This document shows, piece after piece, positions 5,106-48,228 of a stretch of DNA of 64,000 nucleotides. The notes below the pieces were generated by a model. That model was given only the letters and a program-made list of their open reading frames with translations. It ran no database searches and had not been told where the DNA came from. A program made the position numbers and the translations under genes. This DNA is from Candidatus Jorgensenbacteria bacterium GW2011_GWB1_50_10 (GTDB taxonomy: Bacteria; Patescibacteriota; Minisyncoccia; UBA6257; GWB1-50-10), in contig LCQK01000003.1 in assembly GCA_001004105.1 (NCBI GenBank), positions 46,805-110,804 of the forward strand, in the 5' to 3' direction. Position 1 is the first letter of the stretch; the number at the start of each line of letters is the position of its first letter.

Positions 5106-5972
5106 ATGGAGCCTTTACACGAGGGCAAATTAAAGCATTTAGAGGAGAAAGCAAACACAATAAGGGAGAAGGTTATTGAAACGCTCTTGGAGGCCGGTTC
5201 GGGGCACTCGGCCGGGCCCCTGGGGATGGCGGATATCTTCACCGCTCTTTATTTTCATGTTTTGCGGCATGACCCGAAGAAGCCGGATTGGGCCGACAGG
5301 GACAGATTAATACTCTCAAACGGCCACATTTGCCCGGTGCGCTACGTCGCGATGGCCTACGCCGGCTATTTTCCGGTGGAAGAATTGAAGACCCTCCGCA
5401 AATTGAACACGCGGCTGCAGGGCCACCCGCACCGGAGCGCTCTCCCCGGAGTGGAGACAACCTCGGGGCCCTTGGGTTCGGGGATTTCGCAGGCAATTGG
5501 CGTCGCTTTGGCCGCCCGGCTGGACAATAAAAAACACCGGGTCTATTGCATCACCTCCGACGGCGAGCATCAGGAGGGGAACACTTGGGAGGCGATAATG
5601 TTTGCCGGAAAAATGAAGCATCGCTTGAGTAACCTCACCGTTATTTTGGACCGGAATAACATCCAGATTGACGGTTACACTGAGAATGTGATGCCGCTGG
5701 AGCCCCTACGCGATAAATACGAAAAGTTCAGCTGGCACGTGATAGAAATTGACGGCCACAGCATGGTGCAGTTTACGGATGCGGTCGCCGAAGCGAGCGC
5801 GATTTATGAAAAGCCGACGGTGATTATCGCCCACACTATTCCGGGGAAAGGCGTGAGTTTTATGGAGCGCGACTTTACCTGGCACGGCAAGCCGCCGAAC
5901 AAGGAAGAGGCGGAAAAAGCTTTGACCGAGCTCCGCACGTTGGGTCAGAGAATTAAATCAGAACACGAATAA
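5106..5972 (+). CDS. transketolase, N-terminal (TPP-binding) subunit
   Basis: SGHSAGPLGMADI, SNGH and GPLGSG motifs; this is the split-type tkt. A TATAAT box at 5092-5097 lies 8 nt before the ATG. Confidence 0.9.
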   Translation: MEPLHEGKLKHLEEKANTIREKVIETLLEAGSGHSAGPLGMADIFTALYFHVLRHDPKKPDWADRDRLILSNGHICPVRYVAMAYAGYFPVEELKTLRKLNTRLQGHPHRSALPGVETTSGPLGSGISQAIGVALAARLDNKKHRVYCITSDGEHQEGNTWEAIMFAGKMKHRLSNLTVILDRNNIQIDGYTENVMPLEPLRDKYEKFSWHVIEIDGHSMVQFTDAVAEASAIYEKPTVIIAHTIPGKGVSFMERDFTWHGKPPNKEEAEKALTELRTLGQRIKSEHE

Positions 5973-6964
5973 TGGTAAATCCCGAAGCAAAACTTAATCC
6001 GAAGATTTTCGACAAAGACGTGGAAATGAAACCGACGCGGGACGGGTATGGCGATGGTCTGGTTTTGGCTGCTGACCATAATCCTAACGTGGTCGCGCTC
6101 TGCGCCGATTTGACGGAATCAACGCGAGCGGAGGCCTTTGCGAAGAAATATCCAGATAGGTTTTTTGAATGCGGGGTGGCCGAGCAGAATATGGCAACCA
6201 TTGCCGCGGGCCTTGGCATCTCCGGGAAAATTCCCTTCATTTCTTCTTACGCGACTTTTTCGCCGGGCCGGAACTGGGAGCAGATTCGGACGACGATTGC
6301 CTACAACGACTCCAACGTGAAAATCGCCGGGCATCACGCCGGCGTCTCGGTGGGACCGGACGGCGCGACTCACCAGGCAACGGAAGACATCGCCATCATG
6401 CGCGCGATGCCCAACATGAAAGTTTTCGTGCCATGCGACGCGATTGAGGCAAAAAAACTGGTGGTCGCCTCCGCGAAAATATGGGGGCCGGTGTATATGC
6501 GTTTCGGCCGGGAGAAAAGCGCGGTTATCACGACCGCAAGAACCCCCTTTACGCCTGGCAAGGCGGAAATATTTTGGGAATCAAAAGGAAAAATCCAATG
6601 CGCGATTATCGCCTGCGGGATACTGGTCAAGAACGCACTTCTTGCGGCGAAAGAACTGGAGGAGGAAGGCATAAAAACTATTGTTATCAACAACCACAGC
6701 ATCAAGCCGATTGACGAGCAGAAAATCATTGAAGCGGCGGAAAAAGCCGGGGCAGTCGTCATAGTGGAAGAACATCAGGTCTCAGGCGGTTTGGGCGGGG
6801 CGGTAGCCGAAGTTTTGGCAAAACATGCCCCCACGCCCATTGAATTCGTGGGCATGCAGGACACTTTCGGTGAATCGGGCCCGCCCCATGAACTCATTGA
6901 GAAATACGGGATGGGAGTGAGAGACATAAAAGCGGCAGTTAGGCGTGTCATCAAGAGAAGATGA
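5972..6964 (+). CDS. transketolase, C-terminal (pyrimidine-binding) subunit
   Basis: FECGVAEQNM and GPDGATHQATEDIA motifs. The start overlaps the stop of the N-terminal subunit. Confidence 0.9.
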   Translation: MVNPEAKLNPKIFDKDVEMKPTRDGYGDGLVLAADHNPNVVALCADLTESTRAEAFAKKYPDRFFECGVAEQNMATIAAGLGISGKIPFISSYATFSPGRNWEQIRTTIAYNDSNVKIAGHHAGVSVGPDGATHQATEDIAIMRAMPNMKVFVPCDAIEAKKLVVASAKIWGPVYMRFGREKSAVITTARTPFTPGKAEIFWESKGKIQCAIIACGILVKNALLAAKELEEEGIKTIVINNHSIKPIDEQKIIEAAEKAGAVVIVEEHQVSGGLGGAVAEVLAKHAPTPIEFVGMQDTFGESGPPHELIEKYGMGVRDIKAAVRRVIKRR

Positions 6965-12053: not shown

Positions 12054-12749
12054 ATGGCGAAAAAGACGGATGAACTGGTGCAGTTTGCGGGCCACTTCCA
12101 GTCGCTCGCGACTGCGGTTTCCCGCAACCTCGAAGAGCGCGGCGTAAACGTTGTTGAGGCAATCGCGGAGGCCGCAAAGCCGCAAGGCGCTCGGGCGGTC
12201 GCGAAGATCGTAGACGCGCTCGCCGAACTCGTTGAAAACGGCAAGCGGGTCGTCGGCGCTCTCAATCTCATCGTGGCCGACATCGCCGTGAAGACCGAAC
12301 TCTTCACAAAAAATTCGTTCTTCGGCGAGGGGAGCCCAGTAAAACTCTACATCTGGGATAACTTCCGGAACTGGGTACTCACGGCTATCCTTGAGAATAT
12401 ACCTGCGTTCCAGGGTATGCTCGTGAAGCACCAACTCACGAAGGGGATGTATGACTCGGAGATTCTCTCCGGACTCGGGCATCCCACGCCGTTCTCACCA
12501 ACCGAGTTCGCGGCTGTCATTCGCGACCTCATCTCCAAGCAATCGAGAGGCGAGGAGGGCCTTCTCCTCACGAACGGCTACGCCAACATCTTCTATGTAC
12601 AGTTGCCTGCCGGCGCAGGCGGGGAAGATGCACGCGTGGTCGCGGTGCGCGTGACCTGGAACGCCGGGGACGACGACTGGCACCTGGACGCCTACGGCTT
12701 GGACGACGACGGGTGGGGTGACGGTGTCTGCGTGTTCTCTCGCAGCTGA
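12054..12749 (+). CDS. DGR target (variable) protein 1, 231 aa, unassigned family
   Basis: GC-rich ORF whose last 37 codons are the VR. It has no signal peptide or TM segment, and an SD-like AGAGAGG lies upstream of the ATG. A paralog lies at 48342..48932. Confidence 0.85.
   Translation: MAKKTDELVQFAGHFQSLATAVSRNLEERGVNVVEAIAEAAKPQGARAVAKIVDALAELVENGKRVVGALNLIVADIAVKTELFTKNSFFGEGSPVKLYIWDNFRNWVLTAILENIPAFQGMLVKHQLTKGMYDSEILSGLGHPTPFSPTEFAAVIRDLISKQSRGEEGLLLTNGYANIFYVQLPAGAGGEDARVVAVRVTWNAGDDDWHLDAYGLDDDGWGDGVCVFSRS
12602..12623. repeat. decayed copy of the 20-bp palindrome (17/20 with a 2-nt insertion) inside target 1, read as LPAGAGG
   Basis: GTTGCCTGCCGGCGCAGGCGGG lies 9 bp upstream of the VR. 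The paralog has a 6-codon shorter segment at this point (PEDGP versus LPAGAGGEDAR). Confidence 0.6.
12632..12743 (+). repeat. DGR variable repeat VR1
   Basis: 112 bp with 99/112 identity to the TR. All 13 differences lie at TR adenines. Confidence 0.9.
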
Positions 12750-12782
12750 TCTCGGATTTTCGGTCTCTTGGCAATAGTAGTG

Positions 12783-12823
12783 CGCCCCGTTCGAGTTCTT
12801 CGGAACTTGGACGGGGCGTTTTT
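12783..12823 (+). terminator. hairpin with UUCG loop plus T5 downstream of VR1 (intrinsic terminator and/or DGR target-recognition hairpin)
   Basis: 16-bp stem (12783-12798 pairs with 12803-12818, two G-U pairs), loop TTCG, then TTTTT. It starts 40 nt after the end of the VR. Confidence 0.7.
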
Positions 12824-12831
12824 GTTATAAT
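12823..12831 (+). promoter_or_regulatory. extended -10 box TGTTATAAT, candidate promoter of the TR-containing RNA
   Basis: A perfect TGnTATAAT sits directly after the terminator and about 170 nt upstream of the TR. I saw no convincing -35 box. Confidence 0.45.
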
Positions 12832-12998
12832 AAAAATGAAATTTTTTGACATCACTGCGGTCAAGGCTTCAGTGGGAAGATTTCAAAAAACAGAAAGGTC
12901 AGCTGGTGTAGGGCGCTAACGGGTGCGAAAGACCCGGCATTAGATGCAACGCTTAGAGGAATCAAAGCGCAGTGGCAAGGGCGGCGCTTTACACGATA

Positions 12999-13110
12999 AC
13001 GCGTGGTCGCGGTGAACGTGAACTGGAACGCCGAGAACGACGACTGGAACCTGAACGCCAACGGCTTGGACGACGACAGGTGGAATGACGGTAACTGCGT
13101 GTTCTCTCGC
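12999..13110 (+). repeat. DGR template repeat (TR)
   Basis: Non-coding and rich in AAC codons in the VR frame (encodes ...VNVNWNAENDDWNLNANGLDDDRWNDGNCVFSR). It is the adenine-bearing partner of VR1. Confidence 0.9.
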
Positions 13111-13125
13111 CGCTTACCTTTTATA

Positions 13126-13470
13126 TCAGTTCTTTGGGAGCTGTTTTAGCCAACCGCCCAGCATTTTTCCAACTTCGTCAACTTTTCCAGAAAGCGCGGC
13201 GTATTTTTTCGTGTCCAGAGATTTGATTTGCCAGGCAATTTGGAGGAAAAATTTTAGTGAGTCAAGTTTAAAAGAGGAATTCCTGATTTTTGCAAACCGT
13301 TCGGCTGGCGTGAGAGGGGCGGCTGAGAAAATTTCTTCGATAATATCCAAGAAAAGCAAATCTACTTTTACGCCGAGAGTATAGCGCGAGGTTTTGGGAA
13401 AATGAGGCGCGAATTCTTGCCAAAGCGTGTAGGCCGCGATTAGTTTCTGAATAATTGGCAGTTCATTCCG
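13126..13470 (-). CDS. avd: Avd-like accessory variability determinant (four-helix-bundle / 23S-IVS protein family); start codon unresolved
   Basis: The reading frame encodes NELPIIQKLIAAYTLWQEFAPHFPKTSRYTLGVKVDLLFLDIIEEIF...KYAALSGKVDEVGKMLGGWLKQ, a typical Avd pattern. There is no in-frame ATG, GTG or TTG upstream of 13359. An ATG at 13519 is out of frame by one base across a G9 tract. Confidence 0.7.
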   Translation of the reverse strand, partial: RNELPIIQKLIAAYTLWQEFAPHFPKTSRYTLGVKVDLLFLDIIEEIFSAAPLTPAERFAKIRNSSFKLDSLKFFLQIAWQIKSLDTKKYAALSGKVDEVGKMLGGWLKQLPKN

Positions 13471-13472
13471 TC

Positions 13473-13481
13473 GGGGGGGGG
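13473..13481. repeat. homopolymeric G9 (C9 on the avd strand) tract
   Basis: Nine consecutive G, 18-26 nt upstream of the RT ATG and inside the 5' region of avd. Loss of one base would fuse the ATG at 13519 to the avd frame. Confidence 0.9.
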
Positions 13482-13498
13482 TTAGAGGACGGGAATTT

Positions 13499-14482
13499 AT
13501 GAAAATTCAATTGAGCCATAAATTCGAAGATATTATTTCACTGGAAAATCTTTTGGAAGCATGGCGAGAATTTTTGCGCGGCAAGAGAAATAAAAGAGAC
13601 GTTCAGGAATTCTCATCGCGTTTAATGGATAACATTCTATTACTTCACAGCGAACTTCGCAATAAAACCTACAAGCACGGGAAGTACGAAGCCTTTAACA
13701 TCTCCGACCCCAAACCGAGAAACATCCACAAAGCCGCCGTCCGCGACCGCCTACTTCATTACGCTATTTACAGGGTTTTATATCCGTTTTTTGATAAGGT
13801 ATTCATCGCCGATTCTTTTTCCTGCCGTTTGGGAAAAGGGACGCACAGAGCCATCAACCGCTTTAGAACTTTTGCTTATAAAGTGAGTAAAAATAATACC
13901 AAAACCTGCTGGGTTTTAAAGTTGGATATTAGGAAATTCTTCGCGAGTATTGACCATGAAATTTTGATAAAAATTCTTGAGGAATACATACCCGACCAAG
14001 ACATTATCTGGTTGCTGAAGAAAGTGATAGAAAGTTTTTATTCGACCGAACCCGGCAAGGGCCTGCCTTTAGGCAATTTAACCTCCCAGCTTTTAGTAAA
14101 TGTTTACATGAACAAGTTTGACCAATTTGTGAAACACAAGTTCAAGGCCAAGTATTACGTGAGATACGCCGATGATTTTGTGATTGTGTCGAAAAACGGA
14201 ATATGGCTTGAAAGTTTAATTCCGAGAATCAGCGAATTTCTAAACAGAGAATTGAAGTTAAAACTTCACGACGATAAGATATTCATTAAAACTTTAGCTT
14301 CGGGAGTAGATTTCCTTGGCTGGGTTCACTTTCCGGATTACCGAGTTCTGCGAACCACGACCAAAAGAAGAATGTTTAAAAGAATCAAAGAACATCCCGC
14401 GCCGGAAACAATAAATTCTTATTTGGGATTATTAAGGCACGGGAACGCTTATAAATTAAAAAGAAAAATTATTGCTGAATAA
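13499..14482 (+). CDS. DGR-type reverse transcriptase
   Basis: 327 aa. The N-terminus reads [20 protein letters not shown]. Motif 4 [20 protein letters not shown] carries the SQ typical of DGR RTs, and the catalytic motif is [11 protein letters not shown]. There is no maturase or endonuclease extension, and the gene is visibly AT-rich. Confidence 0.9.
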
Positions 14483-14498
14483 TTTTTTTTGTGTTTTA

Positions 14499-15242
14499 AT
14501 GGCGTTTATGGAAGCTAGTATTAGCAAGATAATTTTAGAGATTCGGGCGGGCACGGGCGGGGACGAGGCCTCGCTTTTTGCCGGCGATTTGGCGCGGATG
14601 TATCAGAGGTTTGCCGCCCGGCGGGGCTGGAAATTCTCGACGCTCGATGCGAGCGAGTCCGGCGCGCGCGGCTATAAGACGTTCATCGCGGAGATCGGCG
14701 GCCCGGGCGTCTACGAGGCATTGAAGAACGAATCCGGCGTGCACCGGGTGCAGAGAGTGCCGGATACCGAACGGGGCGGCCGGGTGCATACCTCAACCGT
14801 ATCGGTCGCGGTTTTACCCGTAGTGGAAACCAAGGATTTTCAAATTAAAGAAAGCGATTTGGAAGTGACTTTCTCCCGCGCCGGCGGTCCCGGCGGCCAG
14901 AACGTGAACAAAGTGGAAACTGCGGTTCGAATCACCCATAAACCCACCGGCGTTGTCGTAGGTTCCAGGGAAGAACGGAGCCAGCACGCCAATCGCGAGA
15001 AAGCGATGGAGGTCTTGCGGGCCAAGCTTTACGAGGCGCAGAAAGAACAGCAAGTGGGGTCGGTTGCGGAGTTGCGGAGAGGGCAGATCGGCTCGGCCGG
15101 ACGGGCGGAGAAGGTAAGGACATATAATTTTCCGCAGGATAGAATTACAGATCACAGAGTAAGTAAAAAATGGAGTAATATTGAAAAGATATTAGAAGGT
15201 AATCTTGACCCAATCATACAGGCATTTTTGAAAGTCAATTAA
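14499..15242 (+). CDS. prfA: class I peptide chain release factor (RF1-like, PxT-type) lacking the N-terminal domain
   Basis: [27 protein letters not shown] (P-x-T), GGPGGQNVN (GGQ) and [14 protein letters not shown] motifs. RF1 homologs have about 100 more N-terminal residues. The start at ATG 14499 is inferred; the ORF track uses TTG 14472. Confidence 0.8.
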
Positions 15243-15268: not shown

Positions 15269-15379
15269 CGCACCTATAATTTTCCGCAGGACAGGATAAC
15301 CGACCACCGTCAGGGCAAAAAGGTTTCAAATATTCTGAAAGTTCTCGACGGCGATTTGGACAAACTAACCGGCCGTTAA
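15269..15379 (+). pseudogene. displaced original 3' end of prfA (36 codons plus stop, out of frame with prfA)
   Basis: Encodes [36 protein letters not shown]. It shares the 17-mer TATAATTTTCCGCAGGA with 15123-15139 and is GC-rich like the prfA core. Confidence 0.75.
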
Positions 15380-46251: not shown

Positions 46252-48228
46252 ATGGGTCAATTTCAAATCACAAAAACATTTCAGCCGGACGGTGACCAAC
46301 CAAAAGCGATAAAGGCGCTTGTTGAAGGGCTAAATTATGGTTACGGAAACCAGACGCTTTTGGGCGTGACCGGTTCGGGCAAAACCTTTACGGTTGCAAA
46401 TGTCATCGAAAAAATCGGCAAGCCCACACTCTACATTGCTCACAACAAGACCCTGGCGGCCCAGCTCTGCAATGAGCTCCGGGAGTTTTTTCCGGGAAAT
46501 TCTGTCCATTATTTCGTCTCCTACTACGACTACTATCAGCCGGAGGCCTACATGCCCATAACTGACACTTATATCGGCAAGGAAGCGATGATTAACGACG
46601 AGATAGACAAGTTGCGCCACGCGGCGACAACTGCGCTTTTGACGCGCAATGACGTGATTGTGGTCGCGTCCGTCTCCTGCATTTACGGCCTTGGCGCGCC
46701 CGAGGTTTACGCCGAGAATATCTTCCATTTCAAAGCCGGCGACAAAGTGGACCGTTCCAAATTCGTGCGCAAGCTCGTGGAATTGCAGTTTAAGCGGACG
46801 AGCGCCGACCTGAAACGCGGCACTTTCCGGTTGCGGGGCGACAATTGGGAAATCATGCCGCCGGATCGGGAAGTGATTTACAATCTGGAATTGGAGAAAG
46901 GAAAAATAAAAACCATTTACGAAATTGACCCGGTAAAAGGTTTTCAAAAGGAAAAAACACCCACCCTTTCTGAAATTTACATTGCCCCCGCTAGACATTT
47001 CATCACACCTTTACCGGAGCGCGAGCGGGCGATTAAAGCGATTGAAGCGGAACTTGCAGAGCGGCTGAAATATTTTGAAAGGGAGGGAAAACTGCTTGAG
47101 GCCGAGCGGCTGGAACGCCGGACAAGAGGGGACTTAGCCATGATTCGGGAAATCGGCTACTGCAACGGCATTGAGAATTATTCGCGCCATCTCTCCGGCC
47201 GCCGAGCTGGTGAGCCGCCGGAGACGCTGCTTGATTATTTTCCAAAGGACTTCTTGACCGTGATTGACGAATCGCATGTTACTGTGCCTCAACTTCACGG
47301 TATGTACGAGGGTGATGCCTCGCGGAAGAAAACGCTCATTGAATTCGGTTTCCGGCTGCCTTCCGCCGCCGACAATCGGCCGCTTATGTTTCCGGAATTC
47401 GAAAGCAAAGTGGGGCAGGTAATTTACACTTCGGCGACCCCGGGCCCGTACGAGAGGAGAAAAAGCAATCAGATCGTAGAGCAAATCATCCGGCCGACCG
47501 GTTTGGTTGACCCGGAAATAGTTATTCGACCGGCTCGAGGCCAGGTTGACGATTTGATTCCGAGAATTAAAGAAAGAGTAGACGTGAAAGAGCGCGTTTT
47601 AGTGACCACGCTTACCAAGCGAATGGCCGAAGATTTAAGTTCTTATTTGGAAGAGCAGGGCATTAAAGTGACGTATCTCCACAGCGACGTTAAAACTTTG
47701 GATAGAATCAGGATTTTGACGAATTTGAGAAGAGGTAATTTCGACGTTCTGGTCGGCGTGAATCTGCTCCGCGAAGGACTGGACCTGCCGGAAGTTTCGC
47801 TTGTCGCGATTTTGGACGCGGATAAGGAGGGGTTTCTGCGTTCGGAAACCTCGCTTATCCAGACCATTGGCCGGGCCTCCCGCAATGTCAGTGGCCAAGT
47901 TTTGATTTATGCCGATAACATTACCGGTTCGGTAAAGCGCGCCGTGGATGAAACTGAACGCCGCCGCAAAATCCAGATTGAATATAACTTGCGTCACGGC
48001 ATCACGCCGAAAACAATCGTGAAGAAAATCACCGACATCGTGCCGGTCGAGGAAATCCTGAATTTGGAAATGAAACCCTTGCCGCGCTCTAAAGCGGAAA
48101 TTAAGAAAATAATCGCCGGAAAAGAAAAAGAAATGAGAGAAGCAGCAAGTAGACTTGATTTTGAACTCGCGGCAGTTTTAAGAGATGAAATTAAAGCTTT
48201 ATCTAAGAAGGCGGGGAAGCAGTTTTGA
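46252..48228 (+). CDS. uvrB: excinuclease ABC subunit B
   Basis: [20 protein letters not shown] start, [10 protein letters not shown] Walker A, and a C-terminal UVR domain [15 protein letters not shown]. Confidence 0.95.

Follow-up and report, generated by a model that had tools for sequence, protein, structure and literature searches.

The 64,000-nt stretch analysed here, hereafter the window, covers positions 46,805 to 110,804 (forward strand) of contig LCQK01000003.1 of Candidatus Jorgensenbacteria bacterium GW2011_GWB1_50_10, and it contains a diversity-generating retroelement (DGR) made up of a target gene with its variable repeat (VR), a template repeat (TR), an avd gene on the reverse strand, and a reverse transcriptase (RT) gene. 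The target gene (12054..12749, + strand, taken from the list of open reading frames, or ORFs) encodes 231 aa and carries the VR (12631..12746, +) at its 3' end, so that the repeat finishes 3 nt before the stop codon, and the TR (12998..13113, +) aligns with it without gaps at an offset of 367 nt. The two repeats differ at 15 of 116 nt, with 14 of the mismatches at TR adenines and a single non-A mismatch at the 3' edge, and these A-to-N differences imply that mutagenic retrohoming has probably occurred at this locus in the past. The RT gene (13499..14482, +) encodes a 327-aa protein that scores 94.5 bits against Pfam RVT_1 and has the sequence LGNLTSQ, an instance of the [LIV]GxxxSQ motif that defines DGR-type RTs. 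Together with this RT and the adenine-specific TR/VR pair, the locus encodes an Avd protein, the reading frame of which is interrupted near its 5' end. The exact target protein, VR included, is found on 17 public contigs and the exact RT protein on 14, and the profile searches of the target protein gave no Pfam or NCBIfam family match.

The body of avd, that is, its four-helix part together with the stop codon TGA (13128-13126), occupies 13126..13470 on the - strand, coding from 13470 to 13129 in a frame that is open from 13506. The initial annotation had taken it for an Avd-like four-helix-bundle protein, and both profile and structure comparisons bear this out. It matches Pfam bAvd at 54.1 bits against a cut-off of 40 and, starting from leucine 20 (L20) of the complete protein, aligns with residues 1-104 of 104 of the NCBIfam profile DivGenRetAVD at 61.9 bits, below the cut-off of 80. 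An AlphaFold (AF2) model built with 31 homologues has helices at residues 21-39, 42-66, 71-97 and 103-126 (predicted local distance difference test, pLDDT, 85.8), preceded by disordered residues 1-17, and the best Foldseek matches of this model include the Avd of the Bordetella phage BPP-1 DGR (4dwl; template modelling, TM, scores 0.73/0.87) and also the DGR ribonucleoprotein 8ub7. A sequence-profile search of the PDB with the same protein returned no match, and a fold search was needed to reach BPP-1 Avd.

The first ATG, GTG or TTG in the frame of this body is the TTG at 13359. The nearest ATG (13519-13517) opens the 5' segment of avd (13482..13519, -), which runs as far as a homopolymer of nine G on the + strand, or nine C on the - strand (13473..13481), and is +1 out of phase with the body, such that translation from this ATG would end at the TGA at 13465-13463. 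When one G was removed in silico, an intact 130-aa Avd was obtained, as the initial annotation had predicted; its list of sequence features, including the G9 tract, the avd frame, the TGA, the RT ATG and a TGTTATAAT box considered further below, was found to be accurate throughout. The tract lies within the avd 5' coding region as well as in the RT 5' untranslated region (UTR), 18-26 nt upstream of the RT ATG at 13499, and it is the sole G/C homopolymer of at least 7 nt in the 64-kb window. There is no further lesion in the avd body or in the RT gene. In a collection of 15 billion proteins, the public gene call at this avd is only a 74-aa C-terminal fragment, and an exact look-up in the same collection of the proteins that would be encoded with a G8, G11 or G5 tract was empty.

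The starts of avd and RT overlap divergently by 21 nt (13499..13519), with the avd ATG antisense to RT codon 7 (CAT) and the RT ATG antisense to avd codon 7. This arrangement is shared by 108 related loci, where the N-terminal MAQLNFH of Avd mirrors the MKIQLSH of the RT. As a consequence of this overlap, the promoter of each gene must lie within the coding sequence (CDS) of the other, and the 5' ends of the two mRNAs must be complementary.

For the comparison with related genomes, which the initial annotation had recommended, we collected 80 genomic loci with similar Avd proteins and 80 metagenomic loci with similar RTs, out of approximately 560 and 540 relatives, respectively; nearly all of them come from Patescibacteria, also known as the candidate phyla radiation (CPR). 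The orientation of avd, antisense to the TR-RT interval, had been pointed out as unusual. The description is correct, and the orientation is nevertheless not odd, since avd and RT are divergent with adjacent starts in 153 of the 155 related loci that have both genes, and the arrangement is already known as architecture B3, TR-(avd)-RT, to which 90% of CPR DGRs belong (Wu et al. 2018, PMC5758913). The tract was likewise not a local peculiarity, as had been supposed, but is spread across the clade: a pure run of C8-C14 occupies the same position of avd in 137 of the 154 related loci that could be analysed, with 17 loci at C8, 49 at C9, 48 at C10 and 18 at C11, and the run ends 5-23 nt, mostly 7-11 nt, upstream of the L20 codon. 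Seven related loci have neither the tract nor another repeat, and in three further loci a different repeat stands at the tract position, namely (ACGA)9 in L057, (GA)6 in L079 and (GA)7 in L080 (the L numbers of loci are our own).

The flanks of these relatives contain only five other G/C runs of at least 8 nt in 899 kb, and CCC accounts for merely 22% of the proline codons in the avd bodies, so that the tract appears to be selected as DNA or RNA and not as poly-proline. The "PPP" seen in the protein alignments is independent of the reading frame, given that CCC means proline in all three frames of a C run. The dinucleotide and tetranucleotide repeats at the same site indicate, in turn, that the property shared by these loci is the instability of a repeat and not a function specific to G or C.

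The first alternative to be weighed is that the frame break is an artefact, a homopolymer error hiding a true G8, or else a fixed inactivating frameshift in a decaying DGR. Homopolymers are indeed error-prone, the VR is the same in every assembly of the window locus, and among the relatives there is a group of contigs (L172-L177) with an internally deleted RT. The tract, however, reads G9 in all six assemblies that span it. These represent five samples and were produced by several assemblers (ENA, JGI, Logan), and, save for one mismatch in one of them, the rest of their sequence matches the window exactly. The sequencing or assembly error that the initial annotation had allowed for is thus refuted at this locus, and G9 is a real, reproducible frameshift in avd. 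The empty look-up of a full-length product in the protein collection also goes against a hidden G8. As to decay, the window has no second lesion in the avd body or RT, and the frame break recurs in about two thirds of the 137 diverged tract loci while the Avd body and RT are kept intact, which makes independent decay an unlikely source of it. Error or pseudogene is effectively excluded, and we consider this explanation highly improbable. The L172-L177 contigs, from Hainich groundwater, carry a degenerate cassette in which RT residues 98-262 are deleted and the avd body is still open; three of them have a C7 tract and the other three a C9 tract, and the in-frame length, C8, lies between the two.

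The position of the avd start can be approached from the same set of relatives. The ATG antisense to RT codon 7 is present in 108 loci, in 107 of which its frame contains no stop before the tract, in comparison with 19/108 and 13/108 for the two control frames. In all seven repeat-free loci there is an upstream ATG in frame with the Avd body, as opposed to 44 of the 137 tract loci (32%; Fisher p = 5e-4), and the Avd homologues share the N-terminus MAQLNFH...PPP. Because of these three observations, the upstream ATG is, by comparative evidence, predicted to be the true start of avd. Measured from this ATG, the body is offset by 0, +1 or +2 nt in 38, 59 and 36 loci, respectively; dereplication leaves 128 loci, of which 38 are in frame. 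We refer to in-frame loci as ON and to the others as OFF, the tract loci being divided into 44 ON and 93 OFF. The OFF loci do not appear to be decaying, since 91 of the 93 retain an intact Avd body and 89 an intact RT while the amino-acid sequences have diverged by about 50%. Purifying selection that persists in spite of approximately two thirds of the lineages being out of frame requires either frequent reversion or some form of bypass. The window locus itself is in the OFF phase, and its C9 would have to lose one C or gain two for the frame to be restored.

About 90% of the related elements have an unstable repeat at the corresponding site, which suggests that these elements may turn targeted hypermutation on and off by slippage. 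In this mechanism, the avd ORF would start at ATG 13519, antisense to RT codon 7, would pass through the C run as proline codons, and would continue through a disordered leader of about 19 aa into the four-helix bundle from L20. Slippage gains and losses of single C's would then decide whether the body is read in the frame of the ATG, and, per lineage or per cell, Avd would either be made (ON) or not be made (OFF). In BPP-1, the bRT is inactive as a reverse transcriptase unless Avd is present (Handa et al. 2018, PMC6182149). By analogy with this Bordetella phage DGR, Avd may also be required in CPR DGRs, in which case the OFF phase would mean no retrohoming and the repeat would gate mutagenic retrohoming, with most cells retaining a stable target protein and a subpopulation diversifying it. 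With modest confidence, we consider it rather probable that a conserved hypermutable repeat makes Avd expression, and with it mutagenic retrohoming, stochastic in this way, and that the window was captured in the OFF phase.

The slipped-strand switch had already been raised in the initial annotation, and the comparison with relatives supports it strongly: the tract is conserved, its phase is nearly random, the repeat-free loci are in frame, the OFF ORFs are intact, and single-C differences exist. Like recognised contingency loci, these elements have a non-triplet repeat between the start codon and the domain, over-represented and conserved in spite of its changes in length; they occur in ON and OFF lengths with an intact ORF downstream; and, among the relatives, they show length polymorphism. 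Part of the original proposal is still contested, in that a non-canonical or internal start remains a rival, TTG being enriched at L20 and the window having CTG there (13461-13459).

The tract also changes faster than the sequence around it, as seen in nearly identical contigs. Between L114 (C10, OFF) and L118 (C9, ON), one C is the sole difference over 5975 nt, and L153 (C10, OFF) likewise differs from L157 and L158 (C9, ON) by a single C over about 5 kb. Between the two sister samples, the direction of the length difference is reversed from L114/L118 to L153/L157, which argues against a sample-specific sequencing bias. L178 (C9) and L179/L180 (C10) have only two further differences in 3.2 kb, and one genome carries two cassettes, L059 and L068, in different phases. 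We infer that switching takes place at the level of DNA and is reversible, the first of which is supported both by the tract polymorphism between assemblies and by the dinucleotide and tetranucleotide alternatives. As for activity, the ON/ON pair L084/L085 has 27 differences inside the VR and three elsewhere in 3.9 kb, and, at the assembly level, the VR of the OFF window locus shows zero variation among the six assemblies and the 17 contigs; anecdotally, then, VR variability seems to fit the phase. A further pair, L142/L149, was rejected as a case of phase-linked VR variation, because L149 is collapsed between TR and VR, and only its tract difference was kept. L149 aligns to L142 minus the TR-VR interval, which looks like an assembly collapse and calls for caution with DGR calls on short contigs.

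Several points weigh against this reading. No length variant of the window tract was seen in the six assemblies, and consensus assemblies cannot reveal minority alleles; an exact-flank scan of metagenome contigs for such variants also found none, the closest RT there being 75% identical and the locus itself not represented. The single-C differences between assemblies could in part be homopolymer errors, some of the metagenome-assembled genomes (MAGs) being long-read, and the pattern of VR variation with phase relies on a handful of pairs. The need for Avd in CPR DGRs is taken by analogy from BPP-1. In addition, a non-coding tract would be expected to leave nearly one third of the loci in frame as well; the two OFF phases are unequal, 59 versus 36, which might indicate a decoding event; and TTG makes up 50% of the leucine codons at L20 against a baseline of 17%, alike in ON and OFF loci, which hints at an internal start and tract-independent Avd in about half of the loci. 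The last three points also bear on two further explanations.

According to one of them, the phase would be bypassed at the level of RNA or of the ribosome, instead of or beside DNA switching, and the tract would be a throttle that keeps Avd scarce. Either RNA polymerase would slip on a run of at least nine C/G, or peptidyl-tRNA-Pro would re-pair on CCC-C during a poly-proline stall, and in both cases a fixed, low fraction of in-frame product would result whatever the length of the DNA tract. It is known that tRNA-Pro shifts +1 on CCC-C, and poly-C reads as proline in every frame; moreover, the +1 state, which is that of the window, is the over-represented one, and evolution has long tolerated all three phases without damage to the body. 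Tract length peaks at 9-11 nt, a range whose lower end is close to the size of the RNA:DNA hybrid, yet 17 loci have C8, below the length of at least 9 for transcriptional slippage, and three loci have (GA)n or (ACGA)n, which are classic substrates of DNA slippage and poor ones for polymerase or ribosome slippage. The direction of the shift is not fixed either, given the 38/59/36 distribution of offsets, and there is no conserved stimulator: the position of the zero-frame stop, counted from the L20 codon, ranges between -10 and +205 nt, and no significant local fold was found. A classical programmed frameshift of the prfB or dnaX type can therefore be set aside, both because the direction varies and because the position of this stop is not conserved. 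Finally, length differences do exist in the DNA of otherwise identical contigs. Bypass thus seems to us unlikely, if by no means negligible. A leader peptide with termination-reinitiation was rejected as well, since the out-of-frame stops are scattered without any coupling geometry.

According to the other explanation, Avd would be translated from the L20 codon itself (TTG, ATG or GTG; CTG in the window), the tract would be a non-coding element of the avd/RT control region, for instance promoter spacing, the RT 5' UTR or part of a TR-RT RNA, and the frame of the upstream ATG would be a by-product of RT codon 7. This is consistent with the NCBIfam profile and the modelled fold, both of which begin at L20-21 after the disordered residues 1-17, with the three-fold enrichment of TTG at L20, with a tract that in most loci ends 7-11 nt upstream of that codon and also lies within the RT 5' UTR, and with the neutral expectation of nearly one third in frame. 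On the other hand, in 34 of the 93 OFF loci, that of the window among them, the stretch from the tract to codon -10 lacks any ATG, GTG or TTG, and most loci have no Shine-Dalgarno-like motif before L20. Canonical starts are also no more common in OFF loci (63%) than in ON loci (66%; p = 0.85), and compensation of OFF loci by an internal canonical start was discarded for want of this enrichment. The in-frame upstream ATG in all seven repeat-free loci and the frame open to the tract in 107 of 108 would be hard to reconcile with a by-product, the different repeat types at one site argue against a sequence-specific element, and neither an Rfam family nor a significant local fold was found. We regard this explanation as improbable; separately, the TTG enrichment may mark an internal start of a short Avd isoform.

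Returning to the proposed switch, its two components have well-known counterparts. The CPR B3 DGRs (PMC5758913) and the DGRs that Roux et al. 2021 (PMC8144416) place in clade 2 have the same gene order and orientation, groundwater CPR hosts, and, as in the window, a target without a recognisable domain; the available portions of these surveys do not mention an avd repeat, a 21-nt start overlap or an out-of-frame avd. With the BPP-1 DGR (mtd-avd-TR-brt) the window shares the [LIV]GxxxSQ RT, the adenine-specific TR/VR pair, a GC-rich hairpin after the VR and the Avd four-helix bundle. In BPP-1, however, avd is co-directional, lies upstream of TR and is part of the DGR RNA, whereas in the window it is antisense between TR and RT, overlaps the RT start, carries a frameshift-prone repeat, and is only about 17% identical.

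The poly-G/C contingency loci of Campylobacter jejuni, Neisseria and Haemophilus (PMC4965091, PMC5084427) have a homopolymer of at least 7 nt near the 5' end of an ORF, and they resemble the DGR tract in their natural ON/OFF phases, in the over-representation of the repeat with respect to the genome, and in having dinucleotide and tetranucleotide alternatives. They gate surface structures or restriction-modification in host-adapted pathogens, whereas the DGR tract would gate the cofactor of a mutagenic RT in uncultured, free-living or episymbiotic groundwater CPR. In the pilus G-tract switch of Bifidobacterium breve (PMC9187656), the length of a coding G tract also sets the frame, and the same debate between transcriptional and DNA slippage arose; the function gated there is different, and the matter was settled experimentally by maximum-depth sequencing. 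Phasevarions (PMC5149525), in which phase-variable methyltransferases control regulons, are similar in concept, since a repeat within a single small gene sets at random the state of an entire system downstream and not that of one structural product; the difference is that they act through methylation-dependent gene expression, whereas the DGR switch would act through the targeted hypermutation of a single gene. Contingency repeats and DGRs are each well known, and it is their combination across a whole clade that appears to be new; full-text searches, which did not cover Paul et al. 2017, found no paper linking avd or DGRs with simple repeats, phase variation or avd frameshifting.

If the switch is true, a repeat that gates the RT cofactor would be a means of regulating DGR activity in CPR, the most DGR-rich bacterial group. 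The broader proposal, that the main CPR DGR type carries a contingency switch in its own cofactor gene, by which a second and simpler hypermutable element would randomly start and stop hypermutation of the target protein, and would hence be a two-tier evolvability device, leaves us evenly poised between acceptance and rejection. In practical terms, about two thirds of the avd genes in these genomes are likely mis-called, be it truncated, missing or with a wrong start, and DGR surveys may consequently score such cassettes as lacking avd. The phase of the tract could, in addition, serve as a sequence-only predictor of DGR activity.

Some related loci deserve a separate comment. L122 had been set apart as a tract-less, out-of-frame exception and was dismissed as such, since it does contain a run of C17-18; compared with the near-identical L019, which has C14, it also has an adjacent 32-nt deletion by which the start of helix 1 is lost, and this is either instability beside the tract or an assembly artefact. 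In L004, a second Avd-like match (5625-5984) lies 1.6 kb downstream of the first and may represent two cassettes or two avd genes. L142 contains, upstream of the RT, a perfect tandem repeat with a period of 81 nt (221-632).

With regard to the remaining features of the window cassette, a GC-rich 17-bp hairpin followed by a T run (12782..12819, +) stands just 3' of the VR; it is terminator-like and is a candidate for the DGR inverted repeat that follows the initiation of mutagenic homing (IMH) site. Shortly after it, direct reading of the sequence gives the TGTTATAAT box (12823..12831, +), which resembles an extended -10 element and is a putative start of a TR(-RT) transcript; the two-hexamer promoter scan made no call at it. 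On the opposite strand there is a weak promoter-like TTGCGA-17-TAGAAT (13634..13662, -), about 115 nt upstream of the avd ATG and within the RT CDS. In the promoter and terminator scan, the frequency of matches was not above that of shuffled sequence, this promoter-like match being one as against 0.8 expected. The G9 tract and the RT Shine-Dalgarno sequence (GAGGA, 13485-13489) come to lie in the loop of a 5-bp stem, CCGTC...GACGG (13468-13492, +), which is no more stable than shuffled sequence and is not evident in the relatives. No credible Rfam family was found at the locus, and local RNA folds around the tract were not significant on either strand.

Right after the RT gene comes a gene for release factor 1 (RF1; 14472-15242, +) with the N-terminal ~110 residues missing. 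It matches positions 104-339 of 347 of the NCBIfam RF1 profile, and a tblastn search with E. coli RF1 aligns residues 112-346 only; an RF1 N-terminal domain was not found anywhere within the 64-kb window. Just downstream of this gene, a second short fragment (15269-15367, +) resembles RF1 residues 308-340.

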